Below, piece by piece: positions 45,405 through 62,408 of a stretch of DNA of 64,000 nucleotides. Source of the DNA: Podospora anserina (taxonomy: Eukaryota); assembly GCA_017654855.1 (NCBI GenBank), contig CM030332.1, forward strand, positions 1,612,001 to 1,676,000, given 5' to 3'. The notes under the pieces are model-generated. The model had not been told where the DNA came from, ran no database searches, and saw nothing but the letters and a program-made list of their open reading frames with translations. Every line of letters begins with the position of its first letter. The first letter of the stretch is position 1. Both the position numbers and the translations under genes were made by a program.

Positions 45405-46867
45405 ATGGCATCGCCGCCAAAACCGTGGGAAAGACCAGGCGCAGCGTCTGGAACGACTGGTTAGTGCCTCCTTTATTATCATACGCTCATTCGGATTCAT
45501 TCAGAGCATCTTACTAATCACGCAACAATAGCAACTCTTTCTTCCCCATCCTCAGCCGCTCCAGCTGCGACAACAACTGCGACTCCCAACGCACTTTCCA
45601 ATCCCGCCATGGCGACTTCCACCACAACCGCGTCCGGTACCCCGCCGATACCGCCAGTTCCGGCCTCTCTGACCTCTTCGGTCACACAGAACGCGGCTGC
45701 TTACAGCAGGCCATACGCCGCCTCGCCCTATGGCGGAGGTTACGGTTCAGCCTACTCGTCGCCCTACTCATCACCATACAACAGATATGGCGCTATGGGC
45801 GGTATGGGTGGTTATGGGGGCTATGGAAGTAGCATGTATGGAGGCATGGGTGGATATGGTGGCGGCATGTACGGAGGAGGCATGTACGGGGGCGGGATGC
45901 CAGGAGACCCAAACAACCCGGAGAGTCTCACCAACCGCTTCAACATGAGCACCCAGGCCACCTTCCAGATGCTCGAAGGCATTGTGGGCGCCTTCGGAGG
46001 ATTTGCCCAGATGCTGGAGAGCACTTACATGGCCACGCATTCCAGCTTCTTCGGTAAGTGACGTCGCCAACAGATTGATATTGGCGCGAGACTGACGTTA
46101 TCATAGCCATGGTATCTGTGGCCGAACAGTTTGGAAACCTACGTGACACCCTCGGCTCAGTCTTGGGTATCTTTACCCTGATGCGTTGGATTCGCACCCT
46201 GATCGCCAGGATTACAGGCAGACCCCCACCGGTGGATGCCACAGCCCTCACGCCCGCTGCGTTCGCCCGCTTCGAGGGCCGCAAGCTTCCCGACGGCAGC
46301 GCCCCACCCAAGCCCAGCCGCAAGCCTCTCTTCTTCTTCCTCCTCGCCGCCTTCGGCCTTCCGATGATCATGAGCAGGATTATCCGAGGGCTGGCTGCCA
46401 GCGCTGAAGAAGAGGAGCGCAAGCGCCAAATCATGGCTGCTCAGCAAGTTGTTGACCCCAACAATCTTGTCTTCTGCCGCGTGCTCTACGACTTTACCCC
46501 TGCCAATAGCGGTCCGGCTGCCGTTCAGGGAGTCGATATCCAGGTGCACAAGGGCGACTTTGTTGCCGTCCTGAGCAAGAGCGATCCCATGGGCAACCCA
46601 AGCGAGTGGTGGAAGTGCCGCGCTCGCGATGGAAGAATTGGATATCTCCCTGCGAATTTCCTCGAAGTTATGCGCAAGCCCAACGAGCCCATCGCTGCCA
46701 TCAAGAACACCCCCGCCAGCGAGAGCAGTAGAACTAGCTCCTTGACCAGCTCCGTCAGCGCCCCTGGCACGCTCAGCACGAACCCCCTGAAGGCCCCCCC
46801 GATGCCGACAACCAAGGTTGGCGACGTGACCGTGGAGAGCTTCCAGAAGTCAACGTTCCAATCTTAG
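45405..46867 (+). CDS. PEX13: Peroxisomal docking peroxin Pex13; exons 45405-45459, 45532-46053, 46107-46867
   Basis: MASPPKPWE start; YG-rich domain; TQATFQMLEGIVGAFGGFAQMLESTYMATHSSFFAMVSVAEQF; SH3 domain (CRVLYDF...EWWKCRARDGRIGYLPANFL). Confidence 0.96.
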
Positions 46868-47227
46868 AAGGAGGCCAATGTCATACCTGGACCTGTTATC
46901 AGTACGCACTCGGCACAGCCGGTTCCTGCTTCTGCGCATCCAAGCCGACGCTCTCATTCTCAGCCAGAGCTTTCCATCATTTTACAAGAGTTTAGGAAGA
47001 CGAGGATGACTCCAGTGCCGCGCTACGATAAGCAGTCGGGAACTATGGTATACGTGAATCCCCTGACCGGGGCCCCTGTGATGAATGGAAACCCGGTTGT
47101 GCATTACCAAGATCCTTCACAACAGGCTGCCCACAATCCTCGACAGGGACTCTCGCTTGAAGATTTACTCTGGATGGGCAATGTGAAGCATGCGAAGCGG
47201 GTGAAGAAGGCGAAGACGACGTTCTGA
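46868..47227 (+). other. Stop-free in-frame continuation (119 codons plus TGA) after the PEX13 TAG; candidate cryptic C-terminal extension
   Basis: Reads KEANVIPGPVISTHSAQPVPASAHPSRRSHSQPELSIILQEFRKTR then MTPVPRYDKQ...KHAKRVKKAKTTF* in the PEX13 frame. Confidence 0.6.
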
Positions 47228-51601: not shown

Positions 51602-53389
51602 TTAGCGGATCGTCATCTGCTTGCTGAGCCCAGCCTTGGCCGACGACCCAGAGCTTCCGACACCAGCACCAGCACCGGCCTTCTTCTCAAACACCTTCCA
51701 GAACTTCAAGCTCTCATCGGCAGCAGCGGTAGCCAGCATCTGACCATCAGGGCTGAGGCAGCTGTGGAGGACTCTGCTCTCGTGGGCGGGAATCTCGACG
51801 TTGCGGACGAGGGTAGGGTAGCTCCAGATGCTGAGAGAGTTGTCGGGGAAACCGCTTGAGCTGACGATCTCGCGGTAGTGAGGGCTCCACCGGAGGCTGG
51901 TGACCTGAGAGCCGGTGTCGATGCTGTTGACGCGGGCACCGGAAGTGGTGTTCCAGAAGTGGATGTGGCGATCGTACGAGCCGCCACCAGTAGCAAGGAG
52001 GTTCATGTTCCATGGGCACCAGGCAAGAGCCTTGACGGCGGCCTTGTGGTTGGTCTTGGTGAACTTGGGAACGGCGAGAGAGCGAGCATCCCAGATGGAG
52101 ACAAGATTGTCATTGCCGCCGGTAGCAAGCTGGGCACCATCAGAGCGCCACTCAAGGCCGCAAACCTCAGAGGTGTGAGAGGCGAGCTCGGCAACCTTGT
52201 GCTCCGCGATACGGACATCATGGTTGAAGACCAGGCCGCTGCGGGAACCAGTAGACAAAAGATGCTTGTTCCAGCCCATGACGCCAACACGAGTCTCATG
52301 GCCGTGCATGCTGCGGATCTTGACACCCTCAGCGACATCCCAGATCTGAACCTCGCCTGTGCCGAGACCGACACCGACGTAAGCACCATCACCGGACCAC
52401 TTGACACTGCTAACATAGGTATCGGGGGTGGTTTCGAGGAGACAACTGACGGCACCCTCATCGGCCGACCAGACATATACGTTGCGCTCCAAGCCAATGG
52501 CGACCTGGTTTCCTGAGCTCCAGTCGAGCAGGTTGAGGTAGTAGTCGTCAATGAGACCAGGGGCATCGAGAACACGCTCGGGGGCTGTCGCAATGCGCCG
52601 TCTGAACTGAGGAGGGGCATTCGCGGGCTTCAGTGGCCGGTTGTATTGCTGACGAAGATCAATAGGCTTTGAAGACTCTGGTGGGGCAGGCTTGAACTGA
52701 AGGATACGGGTGTTCAAGTTGACACCACAGGCATCGGCAAGAGAGTCTTGATAGGCAACGCTGTTGGGCGAAGGGCGAGAATAGGACTCCTCTTCCTCCT
52801 CTTCAATGTTGAGACCCTCGAGGGCAGAAAGAGCATCATCAGCAGCAGAGGCAACGATGGAAGAGGCCTCGCTATGGCCAGTTCTCGAGCGCTGCTTCTC
52901 CTGGAGGTCGAGCTTTCCCGAACCGACATTGGCGATGGCCGAGCTAGCTCCCCGGTTGGGAATGAAGCGATCGGCGTTGTAGGAGATGGTGGTCTTGGAT
53001 GACTTTTGCTTGACGTGCGTGGTCTTCCTGGCCTTGGGAGAGACCTTGGTGGGGACACCAGTGCCAGTCAAGGTGAAGTCGGAAACACCAAGCTCGAGCG
53101 CCTTGCGAGGGGTCGAGACACCAGCGGCAATGTTGGACTTGGGAGAGTCGCGGTGATGGCTCTTGCTTGAAGCTCTGGCAAGGCGAGCACCAAGGTTGCC
53201 GCCGTAGACTGGCTTGGAAGCGCCACGCTCATTGCTCGACTTCTCGGGGGTGAATGGAGAGGAGTTGAGGTTGATGGGGATGGCACGCTGACGAGGGGAG
53301 GGGGTCAAGGGCATGCGACCACCGGCGGTGCGGGAGGAGAAGAGACCCGTGTGGGACTTGAGGGGAGTTGATACTGTAGCGGTAGCCAT
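51602..53389 (-). CDS. CDC20: APC/C activator Cdc20/Slp1 (WD40), intronless
   Basis: C-box DRFIPNR; RILQFKPAPP; PERVLDAPGLIDDYYLNLLDW; WD40 repeats; C-terminal IR tail. Confidence 0.95.
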   Translation of the reverse strand: MATATVSTPLKSHTGLFSSRTAGGRMPLTPSPRQRAIPINLNSSPFTPEKSSNERGASKPVYGGNLGARLARASSKSHHRDSPKSNIAAGVSTPRKALELGVSDFTLTGTGVPTKVSPKARKTTHVKQKSSKTTISYNADRFIPNRGASSAIANVGSGKLDLQEKQRSRTGHSEASSIVASAADDALSALEGLNIEEEEEESYSRPSPNSVAYQDSLADACGVNLNTRILQFKPAPPESSKPIDLRQQYNRPLKPANAPPQFRRRIATAPERVLDAPGLIDDYYLNLLDWSSGNQVAIGLERNVYVWSADEGAVSCLLETTPDTYVSSVKWSGDGAYVGVGLGTGEVQIWDVAEGVKIRSMHGHETRVGVMGWNKHLLSTGSRSGLVFNHDVRIAEHKVAELASHTSEVCGLEWRSDGAQLATGGNDNLVSIWDARSLAVPKFTKTNHKAAVKALAWCPWNMNLLATGGGSYDRHIHFWNTTSGARVNSIDTGSQVTSLRWSPHYREIVSSSGFPDNSLSIWSYPTLVRNVEIPAHESRVLHSCLSPDGQMLATAAADESLKFWKVFEKKAGAGAGVGSSGSSAKAGLSKQMTIR

Positions 53390-53788
53390 GTTGGTGACTG
53401 TACTCGTGCTGGTATCGAATATCTCAAGGAGGCGCCAGTGATAGACTGCTATTGGGAGATGGGGTGGAGTGTCGACCAGTCGAGTACTTCAGGTGACCCC
53501 GGATAATGGTTACAATTATCGATTTTTTGTTTTGCGATTTGTCGATTATCGGTACCAAAAATGTGCCAAAAAAGAAGCCTCGGTGAATAGGGACAACCAG
53601 ACGGGCTCGAAGTGATTCTTGCGTATAGGGGCTTGCAATGTTCTAGGGTTGTTTGCTGATGAAGCGGATGGAATATTTAGAATGCAGTGCAAAGCAAAAC
53701 TCCAAAAAGATGAAGTGATGTTTTGTGTGTGATGGTACGAGGAAGGAGAGCTCTGGGACATGAGAGGAAGGAAGGATGGTGATTTAAA

Positions 53789-54299: not shown

Positions 54300-56698
54300 A
54301 TGGCGCAACAACAACATCAGCAGCCTTCAACGCCCGCCGGCACCGGTAATTCCATCTTTGGCGGGCCCGCTCACCTCCAACAGCCCGCCGGCCTCCTCGC
54401 TCAGTCTTCGTTCTCGTCCTTCTCGACAGCACTCACACCTGCTTCGGCCGCATCGTCGAACAATACCTACATCATGCCGAACTCGCCGCTCAAGCACCGC
54501 GCCGCCATGGACGGCTACCGTCCCAAAGTCACACGCACTCTCGGCCAGCGCCCGGCCTGTCTCGTCAATGCCTCAGTGACGTATTGTGGTAACAACCAGA
54601 TTTATGCCTTCGGAGGCTTTGACCAGTACACCGACGAGGTTTACAATCATGTGTTGCGACTGGATCTTGTCAGCCACCAGTGGAACCTGGTCGATAACTA
54701 CGGGGACATCCCCGGTGTTCGGATGGGTAAGCCCCCTGTCTATTTTGCCCGTTGCTGGTGATACTGTGTTGACATTACCCCTGAACAGGCCACACGGCGA
54801 CGCTGTACAAGGGAGACAAGCTGTTGGTTTTTGGAGGCGAGAACGAACATCGAACTTATCTCTCGGATCTTATCATCTTTGACTTGAAGACTGCCCACTG
54901 GACACAGCCACAAGTGACGGGACCTATTCCCAAAGGCCGCGCTCGCCATGCTGCTGTGCTACATGAGGACAAGCTCTTTATTGTGGGTGGTATAACAGGC
55001 CATGACAACTATGTGTTGGACGACATATGTTATTTGGATCTTAAGACTTTCACCTGGTCCAAGTCGTGGCGTTTTGTTGGGCGGTTCGATCACTCTGCAT
55101 ACATTTGGAGTGACAGGGTCTGGGTGTTTGGTGGCTTGAGTGAAGATATGGACAAGGTTAGTGACCTGTGGTGGCTGGATCTCAAGGGCAACCCAGCGTT
55201 TGAGTCTCCTCCACATATCGGCACCCTCGATCGATCCGGTTTATCTCGAAGTGCGGCATCACCACGGCCATCGTACCCTTCCGTCCAGTCTACAGCTGTG
55301 GGCTCTTCCGGTTATGCTGCCAACTCTAGGACTGCACAGGTCAACCCACCGTCATTTCACCTGAAGACATATGCGCCACAAGCACCCGGGGCCATTTCTG
55401 CGCTCAAGTTTGTCAGCGGCCCTAATGTCCCATCTCAGATGCAAGGCATCCATTTCCATGTCTACTCCTCAGGAACACTCCTGGACTTTGTAACACCAGC
55501 AGCTACGATTACGTCAAAAGAATGCTCACTATCAGCCTTAGATTTGGCAGCCTTACGGTGGCAGAAGCTTGCAGAAGGCCGAGAGATATTCAAGCCAGGC
55601 TATCGGTGGCATTACTGCACTATGAATGAAGATGGCACGAAAGCATGGCTGCTCGGCTGCCCTACCGATCCAGGGGCTATTGATCTCGGGGCTAATGGCC
55701 TGGAGGAGTATCTTTCGGACATTATGGAAATTGATCTGCGGCGCTACGGGTTCCTAGGAAACAACATGGCTCCAGAGCCTCGCACCACCCGCCCGTCCTC
55801 CCGCACCCGGCACGTCGAAACACCTTCCAAGGGCCTTGGTGATGATCTGGCGAAGCTCTTCAACCAGCCCCCAGAATCAGGCAGCGGCACGGATTTCATC
55901 GTCACCGCGCTCTCGAGGGACTTTGACGAGGAAGAGGTTATGGGCTCGGCACTCGTCCACGCCCAAGTAGACTCTGTCGGCGACACGGACCCCGACCAGA
56001 CCTGGCTGTCACCAGACACGCCTACCTCCCCACCCATCCACGTTCATCGGCTCATCCTCCAAGCCCGTTGGCCGCACTTTGCCCGGCTGTGGTCTTCTCA
56101 GATGGCCGAGTTTCACACCAAAAAAATGCACATTCCTGAACCATACTCTGTCGTCAAAGCATTCTTGTACTACCTCTACACTGACCGGATCGATCCGCCT
56201 GATCAAAACGGCAACGAAACCACTGCCGACTTGGCTGATGTAGCGGGCTTGTTGGTCATGTCGAATATTTACAACATTCCTCACTTGAGACTGTTGTGCG
56301 TGAATAGATTGTCAAAGGAGCTGGATGTGGATCATGCGTGCATTATCTGGTATTGCGCGGGGTTGTCGAACGAGGAGTGGTTGAGGAAGCGGGCAGCGAA
56401 CTTTTGCATGACGCACTGGGGGAGGATCGTGAGGACGGTTGGGTTTCAGCGGTTGCCGAGGAATGCGCTGGTGGAGCTGAGCCAGGAGGTGGATAGTGAG
56501 GGGAGGGTGGTGGCGGGCGAGGAACTGGATATGATGCAGGTTGGGTTTGGGGTTGGCGGAATTGATAGGGGGGGGGGGCTGGGGAGGAAGGATAGTGTGG
56601 GGAGTGGGGGGAGTGATCAAGAGGGTGGGAGAGGGGTGATGGAGAGTGATGGGCATGAGGATGGAGAGGAAGAGGAGGATGGGATGGAGATGAGTTAG
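54300..56698 (+). CDS. ral2: Kelch-repeat plus C-terminal BTB protein (Ral2-like); exons 54300-54726, 54789-56698
   Basis: Kelch repeats (IYAFGGF, RMGHTA, LVFGGE, RARHAA, LFIVGG, VWVFGG); BTB-like PIHVHRLILQARWPHF...FLYYLYTD; acidic tail. Confidence 0.8.
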
Positions 56699-56962
56699 GG
56701 GGTTAGTCGAAGTCCTGTTCGGGAAGGGGCGTTGAAGGGGCGGGGGAGGTTGGTAGAGGGGGAGGAAGCCTTGGGGCTTGAGAGCAGTGGGGAGAGTGAG
56801 GGTAGCGAGGATAGTGACGAGGAGACGTTGGGAGCTGGGGGGGATGAGGAGCTCAAGGAGGATAGTGAAGAGGAAGGAGAAGGGGAGCTGGATCTTAGTT
56901 TTGTCGATACGAGTGTGAGGCGGTCGGCGAGGAAGCCGAGGATGTTGTTGGAGCTTCTCTGA
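56699..56962 (+). other. Stop-free in-frame continuation (87 codons plus TGA) after the ral2-like TAG; candidate cryptic C-terminal extension
   Basis: Reads GVSRSPVREGALKGRGRLVEGEEALGLESSGESEGSEDSDEE...DTSVRRSARKPRMLLELL* in frame with the gene. Confidence 0.55.
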
Positions 56963-57642
56963 GTGACTCGCTTATGTCCGAGGAGATAATTCCCTCGGTT
57001 TCTTCAGTTAAAGTAATCAGGCTACGTTTTCTTTTTGCTTTTATCACAGTTGCTACTTTTTTTCCATAGCTCGAGAGGTCTCTTTTGGACTGGGAAAGGG
57101 GCAAGGATACGCTGGGATCGGAAATGGACAGGTTGGCTGGCATCATGGCGGAGGCGTTGATGGTTGGGTGGGTGGGACTGTGGGTTTATTTTACTAGTTA
57201 AAGACAAGGAAAGCCAGTTTTTACATGTATGTAGTTGGGGCATGTCTGTACACACTTGCATGCCCCATTTTAGAATCGTACAAAAATGGAGTTATCGGAT
57301 ACTTAGGACGGGACGAGTTCGAGTGACTTGGAAAAGGGTTTTTTCGGTCCCAGGTTGGTGAAGTGATAATTAGGCAGGGTTCTGATTATCGTTCTATCAA
57401 GGCTTGAGGTACTTCACTGACCAGTCAGTCTATGTCCTCACCGCCGTTGAGAGCCTTGCATATTGAGTTGACAAGGCAGTCAGTCAACCGGCCAATTGTT
57501 GACAACTGCACATTGGGAAATTTCCCATGTTGCTTTTTTCGACCCTCAAAATTATCCTCATCCAGGCCACAAGACGCAGCTTCTAGTCTGGTAGGCAAGG
57601 ACTGGTCGGCAACGCTCCTTTTCTTTTACAAAACACAAACAC

Positions 57643-59015: not shown

Positions 59016-61641
59016 TCACGCCAGATAGCGATAGGCAGCCGTATCGCCCTCCATCCGCTCCAAGTATTCTCGCGCAAGCAAGTCCTCGATCCGCTTCTTA
59101 ATGAGAGAAATCTCAGGCTTGAACCGACCAGAGAGCTGGCTGATGACCTCGGTTGTGAGCTGAGTATGGCTGAGCTCCTTGCGTTGTCTATAATCGACGG
59201 TTAGCATCAAGTAAAAACGAGCAGCAATGAAATGTACTGACTTCATGATTCTGACAATAGCAGCATCCACAACGTGAGCACGCGTCTGATCGTTCTTCCT
59301 CTCCGTCTCCTTGCGCTCCTCCGTGCCCTCAACCCTGGATGTGCTGCTGATAACAGGCACCCTGATCTTGATTTGCTTGCTGACGAACTGAGCATTGAAA
59401 GAAAACTTGTCTGTGGGCTTCACGGACTTTGTCAGAGGCTCCTTGGCGAGAACCCTGAATTTTGGCGGAACCGAGAGTGAAGTCAAGGTTTTGGTCAGAT
59501 CCGGGATGGGAATGTTCGTCTTCAGCTGGATCTCTTCGAAGCTGAGACTCTCGTCATTGGCCAGATCGTTGAAAAGCATGAGAACAATCATTCCGTAAGT
59601 GGAGACATTGAGCTCATAGCGCCTGTCTTTGCTCAACGGCCCGGACTCTTTGCCAGGAACCTTGGGAAAGAAACATTTGATGTCTGCGCTGCCGGTGGAA
59701 GGTACCCAGGTGAGAACTCTCCCACTGCGATCCTGGCAGTAGAATTTGTAGAAACTCTCTTGCAGTCGTTTGATAGATGGTGGGAAGATACAGTCCGACC
59801 GCGATGCATCGCCATCTTGGAGGACACCGCGCCCCATGACATCAGTAGGCCAGAAGTTTGTGGTGAGAACATGAATAGCAAGTTCAGTAGACTTCCTATC
59901 ATCGTCCCCAAGATTGCGAATGTGGTCCTTGTAGTTGGTTGACAGATCTTTGGAGAGCTCCATGTCCTTGAACATGCCTTCGAATTTGGCAGTGAAATGA
60001 TTGCCCAACTCAGCCCGCATTCGTCGGACGAGCTCCTTTTCGATGTGGATTTCGGATTTGTTGTGCAGTAACCTGCGACCTAGGTGCTTTTGATAGTAGC
60101 GCTCGAATAAGTCACGGTCCGAAAGATACCTGACCAGAATAATGGCCTTTTGTAGAACAACCTCCGCATCCTCGTCAGATTTGCCTTTCAACCCTCGTTT
60201 GAGACTATCGTCAATGAACAGCGAGACAAACTCGGCACCTCGATCAAACATGTTGATGAAGTCTGCAAAGCTCTTCGTAATAGCCGACTGGATGATAAGA
60301 TCGTTGCTGAAACAATTTTCCAGCATTGAGTCAAACTTGCCCTTGAGCTTGAGGACGTCGTCAACCCATTTGATGGCAGCGGCTGTTTGCTGTGCGACTG
60401 GACTCAAAGCCTTGGGTTTGTCGGCCCCCTCGGCCCCCTCCTCGCCCTCCCCAGCAGCACCGGCCGCTGCTGGTGCAGAGAAGTCTGTGTTCTTGAGTGT
60501 CTGCTCAATTTCAAGGCCCAGTTCCATGACCCGGCCCATCAAACTCGTTTTGAGGGTATTCTTCGATTTGTCGATCCTTGAAATCAGCTGATACAGGATT
60601 CCAAGGTCTTCTTCTCGGTCATTGTCCACCATCGCCTTCAACCCGCTCCCTTCCATCGCCAGGAATTCATCCATCTTGGCCAGTATCAACTCTTTTTCCA
60701 AGACCGCTGCTATATTGTCTTTTGTGGAATTCGAAACCGAAGTAACACACCTCTCTTCCTCTTCGAGCAGGCGTCGTCGTGTGTGGCGCAACCACGAACC
60801 GGCGTCGGACTCTCGGAGCAACTTCTCACATTCGGCTTTGTAGAAGACCTCGCTGGCGGCAAGGAAGCGTGGCTCGAATATTGTCGTGTACAGCTTCTCG
60901 TTTTCCTTCTCTTCGTCCGTCTCATACAACTGCTCTAGCATGCCGGTTATGTCACGCAGAAGGTTGCGGTCGACGATATCCCCATCTCTATCCATATTGA
61001 TGAGGTCGAGAACGACAGCAATGACCACGTCCATAATGATGAATGGCTGATCCGACCCGTCAACATCCTTTAGGCCATACTTGAGGATATGATCTCGGAA
61101 AAGGCCGATCGTTGTTGCGTATACTGATGCTTGCTTGGTTTCCACACAGGACCTCTCCAGGTACATCAGCATATCCGCGATCAGGTTCATTGATGTGTTA
61201 TGGTCCTCCCAAATCTTGCGAATTCCGCGAAGAAGTCTCTCACCAGCCTCGCGGCGTTCGTGGGAGCTTGACGTGGCCAATTGTATCAAGGCGATGCTCG
61301 GTAAATTGTTCCTAACCAGCTCGTCGACACCGGGAATGATGTGCTTGTGGAACCATTCCGTCTCGAATTCTTTAACCTTTTCAAAGAGCTCCTCGCCGCG
61401 CTTGACCAGTGTGATCTTGTATGAGGCTCGGTAGAGGTTTTCGAAGGAAAGCTTGCTCGCATTTTTGTTGTGTATGTCGGTCATGGCACTCTGGAGGGTT
61501 GCCCAGCATTGATCAAACCCACCGGCGTCCTTGTTGATCAGGGGCTGTGATAGACAGACGTTAGCATGCCAAATAGGAAGCTAGCAGAGAATGACGTAGT
61601 TATACCCTTCGTATTGGCCTCGGCCTATTCCTGGAAGCCAT
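59016..61641 (-). CDS. CUL3: Cullin-3; exons ~61641-61606, 61544-59242, 59187-59016
   Basis: KNASKLSFENLYRASYKITL; AEFVSLFIDD; DLFERYYQKHLGRRLL; KFEGMFKDMELS; neddylation site DAAIVRIMKQRK; IKKRIEDLLAREYLER...YRYLA. Confidence 0.93.
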
Positions 61642-62408
61642 TGTGCGATATTGGCGCTCTATACTCGGCACAAGAAGGTGGGCAGGCAAAGTGGTGATGG
61701 TGGTGGTGTCGAGAAGGGGGGGGGGGACGTCAACAGTCCGCGAGGTTTCGTGAGGGAGTGGGAAATATGGCCCGAATTGGACTAAACTGGTGATAAAAAC
61801 TGTTAAATAGCTTGTGATCAAATTCAGTTCGTTGGGTAGGTGAAGAAAGCCCGGGATGGCAGGAGGCGATTTTGGTATGCGTGCTGTGTTGGTGGGATGG
61901 AATCCGTCAAATGGCAGGCAAGCAAAGGCGGCGAACGACCGAGCTCCGGACTGGGCACATACTCGACGTTGTCCTGGAACAAAGTAAACAGACACAGGAT
62001 GGGGCCAGCAAGACAATCCTCAAAAAAATACACGAGCTCGACAATGCTTGGGAAGCTTCAGGCACAACCTTGACATCTAGGAGGTCCGACTACAGCACAC
62101 CATCAGCTGCGACAGCGGGGAGTTGCAGCCAGCTTCAGCTGCCACCTAAAAACCGTGCCCCACCAAACCGCATCACTGGTTGGACTCTGATTTGCTACCA
62201 ATCATCTATTCTTGGCGCGTTTATCGCGTCTTGGCTAGCTCCAAGCTAATCTTATCGATAAGAACTCTGACAGGGATCTTGAACATCTTGACGATGACGA
62301 AGGTCCAATTGCTTCTCTACAGTTCGGCTTCACCTTTTGCGACAACCAAAATTCTTACCGATTTCGACCCCTTCTTTCCTCACCACTCATACCCTCCTAT
62401 CCCTAACC

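Follow-up and report, generated by a model that had tools for sequence, protein, structure and literature searches.

An ancestral TAG stop and a coding-like in-frame tail in a Kelch-BTB gene of Podospora anserina: a candidate site of stop-loss editing

Results

The Kelch-BTB gene and its surroundings

The window analysed here, a stretch of 64,000 nucleotides of Podospora anserina DNA (contig CM030332.1, positions 1,612,001 to 1,676,000, forward strand), carries a gene of two exons (54300–54726 and 54789–56698) that encode a protein of 778 aa, with Kelch repeats (Pfam Kelch families) in its N-terminal part and a BTB domain (PF00651, E 1.9e-8) in its C-terminal part. On comparison by eye the protein matches PODANS_1_4600, and it is near-identical throughout the Podospora anserina species complex. 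The features of the locus, in window coordinates, are as follows.

54300..54726, + strand: exon 1 of the Kelch-BTB gene (Pa_1_4600); the spliced translation reads, by eye, as the 778-aa protein P0127 (PODANS_1_4600)
54727..54788, + strand: 62-nt GT..AG intron, skipped in the RNA contigs of 4/4 runs
54789..56695, + strand: exon 2, with Kelch repeats, BTB domain (aa 559–652) and a conserved acidic C-terminus ending GMEMS (Pfam; homologue ends)
56568..56578, + strand: run of eleven G (G11) within the coding region, seen in the sequence; RNA contigs end just upstream, at 56489–56537
56677..56720, + strand: weak hairpin predicted by folding, with UAG in a 14-nt loop (56692–56705) and stems of 9 bp and 3 bp
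56696..56698, + strand: canonical ancestral TAG stop, from homologue ends; candidate A-to-I site A56697 (UAG to UGG, Trp)
56699..56959, + strand: 87-codon in-frame tail, coding-like by phase scores, with no Pfam family
56960..56962, + strand: second in-frame stop, TGA, followed by T-rich, UTR-like sequence (composition, phase score)
56963..57312, + strand: likely rest of the 3′ UTR, from contig depth only and with strand unassigned; cover by RNA contigs stops no later than about 57290–57312

The end of the gene was first noticed, in an initial annotation made from the sequence, for a TAG followed by a long open frame. The sequence reported there, ATG AGT TAG GGG GTT, is present at 56690–56704, placing the TAG at 56696–56698 and its A at 56697. 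The claimed 87 open codons are likewise present (frame open over 56699–56959, closed by TGA at 56960–56962), with the peptide as given; over the same interval the other two frames contain 3 and 10 stops.

The gene stands head to head with what we take to be a Cdc20-like WD40 gene (51602–53488, − strand), and a presumed cullin-3-like gene (59016–61580, − strand) lies two to three kb away. BTB proteins are cullin-3 adaptors, which makes this second neighbour suggestive. In P. pseudoanserina the protein P0125 is annotated with 742 aa and ends in a shifted frame just past the G11 run, through either a mistake in the assembly or a genuine frameshift allele.

Among PDB sequences, the family profile matched KLHDC3 and LZTR1 best (LZTR1 Kelch domain second-best, E 4e-23), Fusarium homologues are annotated ‘related to ral2’, and the order of N-terminal Kelch and C-terminal BTB is that of Ral2 of Schizosaccharomyces pombe, PoRal2 of Pyricularia oryzae and human LZTR1. 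The gene encodes an LZTR1/Ral2-like Kelch-BTB protein that, judging by its family, would serve as a cullin-3 substrate adaptor. The link to Ral2 and Ras1 mating signalling that had been drawn for this gene is, however, probably wrong, although unsupported rather than refuted. A second Kelch gene (L094 108–2600, minus strand; G000:C6, about 1975800–1978400; 1090-codon frame) has the same layout, with a weak BTB match, and its size fits the characterised orthologue PoRal2 (1069 aa according to the accessible part of PMC8473790) better than does the 778-aa protein. Moreover, a Sordaria table, in the part available, gives S. pombe Ral2 as top Swiss-Prot hit for SMAC_07436 and not for SMAC_05744, which, like XP_965020, is an orthologue of the Podospora gene. 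The gene on C6 is probably the true Ral2 orthologue, and Pa_1_4600 probably a Ral2 paralogue.

The TAG lies at the end of the family's proteins

Homologue ends were compared in the best 120 of 1172 homologues: 119 end in a GMEMS-like motif, 50–68 residues past the same anchor, and the remaining one is truncated earlier. A motif of this kind also closes all 12 homologues that exceed 823 aa, and in the gene's own 90% cluster 12/13 members have the GMEMS end itself. Because 119 of these best 120 homologues end at the aligned motif, the TAG is not premature, and the earlier alternative of a recent premature stop is ruled out; the TAG is the canonical, ancestral stop. Restorative editing, in which a premature stop is corrected, was also rejected, since the sequence past the stop has no conserved coding counterpart in orthologues and the stop corresponds to the ancestral end of the protein.

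Codon phase, rather than length, sets the tail apart

An open frame at least as long as the tail arose in 201/20000 mononucleotide and 262/20000 dinucleotide shuffles. For a genomic background, 89 stretches of 10 kb and the window (954 kb of the same genome) were searched for frames of at least 300 codons; the 197 frames found were reduced to 164 without overlaps and, on dropping 28 that seemingly ended in introns, to 136 gene ends, a heuristic set of which some are wrong. At least 87 open codons followed the stop in 5/136 gene ends and in 3/40 of those ending in TAG (counting the Kelch-BTB gene). The other two frames reached this length in 17/136 and 12/136 cases, making tail length weak evidence: by itself it is only mildly unusual.

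Codon phase is the stronger signal. Scored with a three-periodic model trained on the remaining genes, the tail had an in-frame phase margin of 62.4 bits. No other of the 136 post-stop windows scored as high (mean −12.9, SD 28.7), a rank to be read with the caveat that the locus was chosen for its coding look. This margin also exceeds the median of true coding ends (46.1 bits). The coding-versus-UTR score was 23.2, where post-stop windows average −38.9 and coding windows 19.5. No shuffle reached the phase score of the tail when 2-, 3- or 4-mers were kept (0/2000 each), and 5/2000 did so when 5-mers were kept. Frame 0 was best in all three thirds of the tail, and the sense frame 0 outscored every antisense frame. 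Plain periodicity was less distinctive, being equalled by 14/136 post-stop windows. Several windows came within a few bits, one of them (L050) scoring 61.7 bits in another frame without an open frame, so coding-like phase does not require readthrough.

At 49% G, the tail is the most G-rich of the 136 post-stop windows, and G-richness, which lowers the frequency of stops, had been raised as a caveat at the outset. The caveat holds for length, which is mild evidence, but G-richness does not account for the phase, in which the tail leads a set of 28 genes whose coding ends are as rich in G. The initial annotation had rated this site as weaker evidence than PEX13; the phase scores are 62.4 for the Kelch-BTB tail and 32.8, over 261 nt, for that of PEX13.

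Other gene ends in the background have open post-stop frames. In PEX13 (Pfam; window 46865–47227, + strand) a TAG is followed by 119 open codons ending KRVKKAKTTF; RNA contigs of four runs, of unstated developmental stage, span this TAG, with no A>G listed. A UBA-thioredoxin-like-UBX gene (L014 7654–9603, minus strand; G000:C1:2100001-2110000) ends TTT GAG AGT TAG GAG, a stop context nearly matching that of the Kelch-BTB gene, and continues for 106 open codons with the second-best phase of the 136 (61.6); its UAG falls in a 5-nt loop of the MFE fold (z +1.05), and the gene is another candidate for stop loss. In L065 (G000:C5:2800001-2810000, minus strand, with the stop 4121 bases into that strand), a frame of 934 codons ends in TGA C, and 77 open codons of phase 46.6 follow, possibly through readthrough or as a G-rich UTR.

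Composition of the tail and its boundary with the UTR

The tail is acidic, as had been claimed (25 D/E, 11 K/R, net charge −14), and of low complexity, and a Pfam search of it returned no family. T content carries over unchanged from the gene into the tail and shifts at the second stop: it is 0.17 both upstream of the TAG and over the tail's first 150 nt, but 0.36 past the TGA, and the phase score there is −26.7. A flat T step at the stop, as at this TAG, occurs in 37/136 gene ends and by itself is not rare. Classical nuclear localisation signals have the pattern K-K/R-x-K/R or a bipartite basic motif. In the basic end of the tail neither pattern was matched, the nearest being RKPR (three basic residues of four), which leaves the NLS-like motif of the initial annotation weak.

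The sole ATG in the tail lies 6 codons before its end, and a search of the genome found no paralogous copy of the tail elsewhere. DNA similarity between the last 218 nt of the gene and the tail was borderline (23/1000 codon shuffles), and an internal duplication was not adopted as the origin of the tail.

Conservation of the tail

Whether the frame behind the TAG is conserved had been proposed as a check, and the outcome differed with distance: the frame is kept in three close variants but not in two distant orthologues. The close variants (P0162, P0164 and P0165; Logan-called tail versions from aa 12 on), taken as strains of the P. anserina complex, show the frame intact in every case, even though one of them has lost a whole codon. 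Together the variants within the complex show three substitutions and one whole-codon deletion, a divergence too small to show selection on the tail.

Searches with the tail protein gave two hits among 9 candidates and one among 1.84 billion representatives (P0163), and in neither set was a homologue found outside the P. anserina complex; a search of the ESM Atlas returned only matches of 0.83 or lower. P0163, whose tail is 80% identical, was not counted as a relative, since all of its internal differences (13/13) correspond to C-to-T conversion of the tail in the window. Converted database records of this kind can pass for 80%-identical relatives.

A metagenome scan recovered at least two distant orthologous loci, one with TAG and 33 further codons that look non-coding, the other with TGA and 2 further codons; genome-contig and viral-contig collections yielded no further orthologous loci. 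A TAG with a long tail kept across the class, as described for DBF2, is thus absent from these two distant orthologues, a small sample.

RNA contigs over the locus

The RNA data are spliced contigs from 4 of 22 listed runs, of unstated stage. Contig depth was 19–71 in the bin 56616–57279 in 4/4 runs, with cover ending near 57300; these contigs are separated by a gap from those of the coding part, and their strand is unassigned. Cover at this depth in four spliced contig sets indicates that the region is transcribed, and in 3/4 runs it was deeper here than over the coding part. Coding contigs of three runs end at 56489–56537, and nothing else covers the sequence up to 56615. Word shares imply holes of about 250–450 nt if there is one gap, and 160 nt suffices to hide the TAG.

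At 56697 no A>G and no joint was listed in the four runs, from contigs that probably miss the TAG and drop minor variants. With contigs breaking off ahead of the G11 run and probably skipping the TAG, the missing A>G is void rather than negative. Over 19.9 kb the contigs contain only one A>G, at 62385; it is preceded by C and accompanied by a shared G>C change, and is therefore probably a strain difference. The fixed differences among the run sets at 56407, 62385 and 62967, which are C>T in X8 and X14 and, in X1 and X3, A>G and G>C, have the look of variation between strains and not of editing.

Sequence context and predicted structure at A56697

Fungal editing prefers U at −1, A or G at +1 and +3, and hairpin loops (accessible part of PMC11156358). 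The TAG had been described as lying in such a preferred context; of this, the G at +3 is the informative part, the U at −1 and the G at +1 being inherent in any TAG. Folding of ±30 nt placed UAG in a 14-nt loop (−11.6 kcal/mol, z −1.65, 13/200 shuffles as stable), and folds of four other lengths (z +1.08, −0.34, −0.85 and −0.84) were no more stable than shuffles. A56697 was unpaired in 5/5 folds, consistent with a predicted but weak hairpin loop around it.

Published editing sites

No catalogue of Podospora editing sites was found in the literature searched, which contained only ADAT gene expression. Among the 403 stop-loss genes of F. graminearum (PMC13123824 Dataset S1), none is annotated kelch, BTB or ral2, and many are unannotated; one of these, FG3G26270 (CDS position 2288, 762 codons), would fit the Kelch-BTB gene in size. 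SMAC_05744 did not appear in the readable supplements of PMC6794485 or among the listed rows of PMC5381528 Table S2. Searches for Ral2, kelch, BTB or orthologue ids gave no match at this gene in the available supplement rows of PMC13123824, PMC5381528, PMC6794485, PMC13431901 and PMC4817773, a weak negative given that F. graminearum and NCU ids were absent from the query. No paper on editing of this gene was found, the accessible text of PMC3777964, PMC13433876 and bioRxiv 10.1101/2024.12.09.627484 included; other supplements might hold one.

Discussion

The Kelch-BTB gene ends where its homologues end, and its stop is followed by an open frame with coding-like phase, a switch in composition at the second stop and RNA cover. 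From this we infer, at a probability of about 0.45, that sexual-stage A-to-I stop-loss editing produces an 866-aa isoform with an acidic tail that is put to use. The 778-aa protein would normally terminate at the ancestral UAG. In fruiting bodies, mRNA editing of the Tad2-Tad3 type found in Sordariomycetes would probably turn A56697 to inosine in some transcripts, and the edited UAG, decoded as Trp, would add 88 residues (Trp and the 87 of the tail). The added tail would be acidic and probably disordered, ending in a basic and leucine-rich stretch, and would most likely make the protein less stable or change how it binds partners, as for FgDbf2, rather than bring it into the nucleus. Destabilisation is put first here because six tested F. 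graminearum tails cut GFP levels 5- to 38-fold (PMC13123824, accessible part).

As far as the accessible literature goes, sexual-stage mRNA editing has been shown in Neurospora, Sordaria and Chaetomium, and stop-loss editing documented in Fusarium, Neurospora and Sordaria. The closest parallels are FgDBF2 and the 403 stop-loss edited genes of Fusarium graminearum, whose tails are longer than controls: in the available part of PMC13123824 these share with the Podospora gene a canonical TAG past a conserved C-terminus, an A in a predicted loop, and a longer than usual, compositionally biased tail that is poorly conserved past close relatives. For FgDBF2, however, editing was measured and the destabilising effect of the tail tested, whereas for the Podospora gene editing is a prediction; and DBF2 has TAG in 94% of Sordariomycete orthologues (same source), whereas one of the two distant orthologues of the Kelch-BTB gene has TGA. 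White collar 1 of Sordaria macrospora (+131 aa), from the same fungal order, likewise has a long C-terminal extension by way of Trp, but for the Sordaria extensions there is proof at the peptide level (PMC6794485, in the part available). In PUK1 and AMD1 too, UAG must become UGG for downstream coding sequence to be read, but there, according to the accessible part of PMC11156358, the stop interrupts a conserved frame, whereas the Kelch-BTB TAG is the ancestral end of the protein.

The main competitor, which we regard as a serious possibility without favouring it, is that the tail is an incidental G-rich 3′ UTR in which purine triplets (GAG, GGG, GAA, GAT) fall in frame by chance, any editing of the TAG being tolerated noise; such sequence could have spread by slippage or stem from an ancient local duplication that copied the acidic end of the gene, as the borderline similarity between gene end and tail DNA (23/1000 codon shuffles) would allow. 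It is favoured by the tail being the most G-rich of the 136 post-stop windows (0.49), by the frequency of at least 87 open codons (5/136 in frame, 17 and 12 of 136 out of frame), by the lack of homologues outside the complex and of a tail in the distant orthologues, and by the argument that stop-loss editing is mostly non-adaptive, an error (PMC13684035). The out-of-frame counts are, however, inflated by miscalled gene ends, the phase persists against k-mer-preserving shuffles and in all three thirds of the tail, and among the 27 other genes with G-rich ends only L065 comes near (46.6). Ribosomal readthrough of UAG by a near-cognate tRNA, giving a low-level extended form without editing, would explain the coding-like tail equally well, and P. 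anserina does have programmed recoding, the −1 frameshift of PaYIP3 (accessible part of PMC3777964). We nevertheless hold it improbable, the base after the stop being G and the position of the TAG in a loop fitting editing. Leaky stop contexts usually carry C after the stop.

Two further readings seem to us still less probable. An ancestor of the Podospora clade might briefly have had a longer protein and then regained a stop at the old position, leaving the tail to decay; coding-like phase without present use would follow, and the three amino-acid changes and one codon deletion among the complex variants would fit. Yet no annotated homologue is extended: 119 of the best 120, and 12/12 of the longer ones, end at the motif, including those of the four closest species outside the complex, and such a relic is very unlikely. 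Least credible of all is that alternative splicing gives access to the tail, or that it is part of another gene, be it separate or antisense. Donor-like sequences (GTTAGG at 56694, GTTAGT at 56702), antisense open frames and the greater depth over 56616–57279 than over the coding part in 3/4 runs could be read this way, but there is no branch-site match over 56563–57156 and no joint is listed in the four runs, the first and only ATG of the tail comes as late as 6 codons before the end, the sense frame 0 beats the antisense frames, and the higher depth is consistent with 3′ bias.

Stop-loss editing as a class is already known, with hundreds of members per genome, and the Kelch-BTB site is a fair candidate member. 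A more far-reaching version of the editing reading, which we consider doubtful, is that the tail is young and confined to the Podospora clade, a piece of 3′ UTR recruited behind an ancient stop, which A-to-I editing in fruiting bodies alone would switch on and which coding constraint would already shape. If true, this would be a birth of coding sequence gated by editing, on a Kelch-BTB adaptor of the cullin-3 type. Published views differ on whether stop-loss editing in fungi is adaptive or noise (PMC13123824, accessible part, versus PMC13684035). A tail that the distant orthologues lack but that scores as coding is a useful test case here, since signs of constraint in one so young would speak for selection; if real, editing of this site would also open a stage-specific way into the study of a Kelch-BTB adaptor that has apparently received none.
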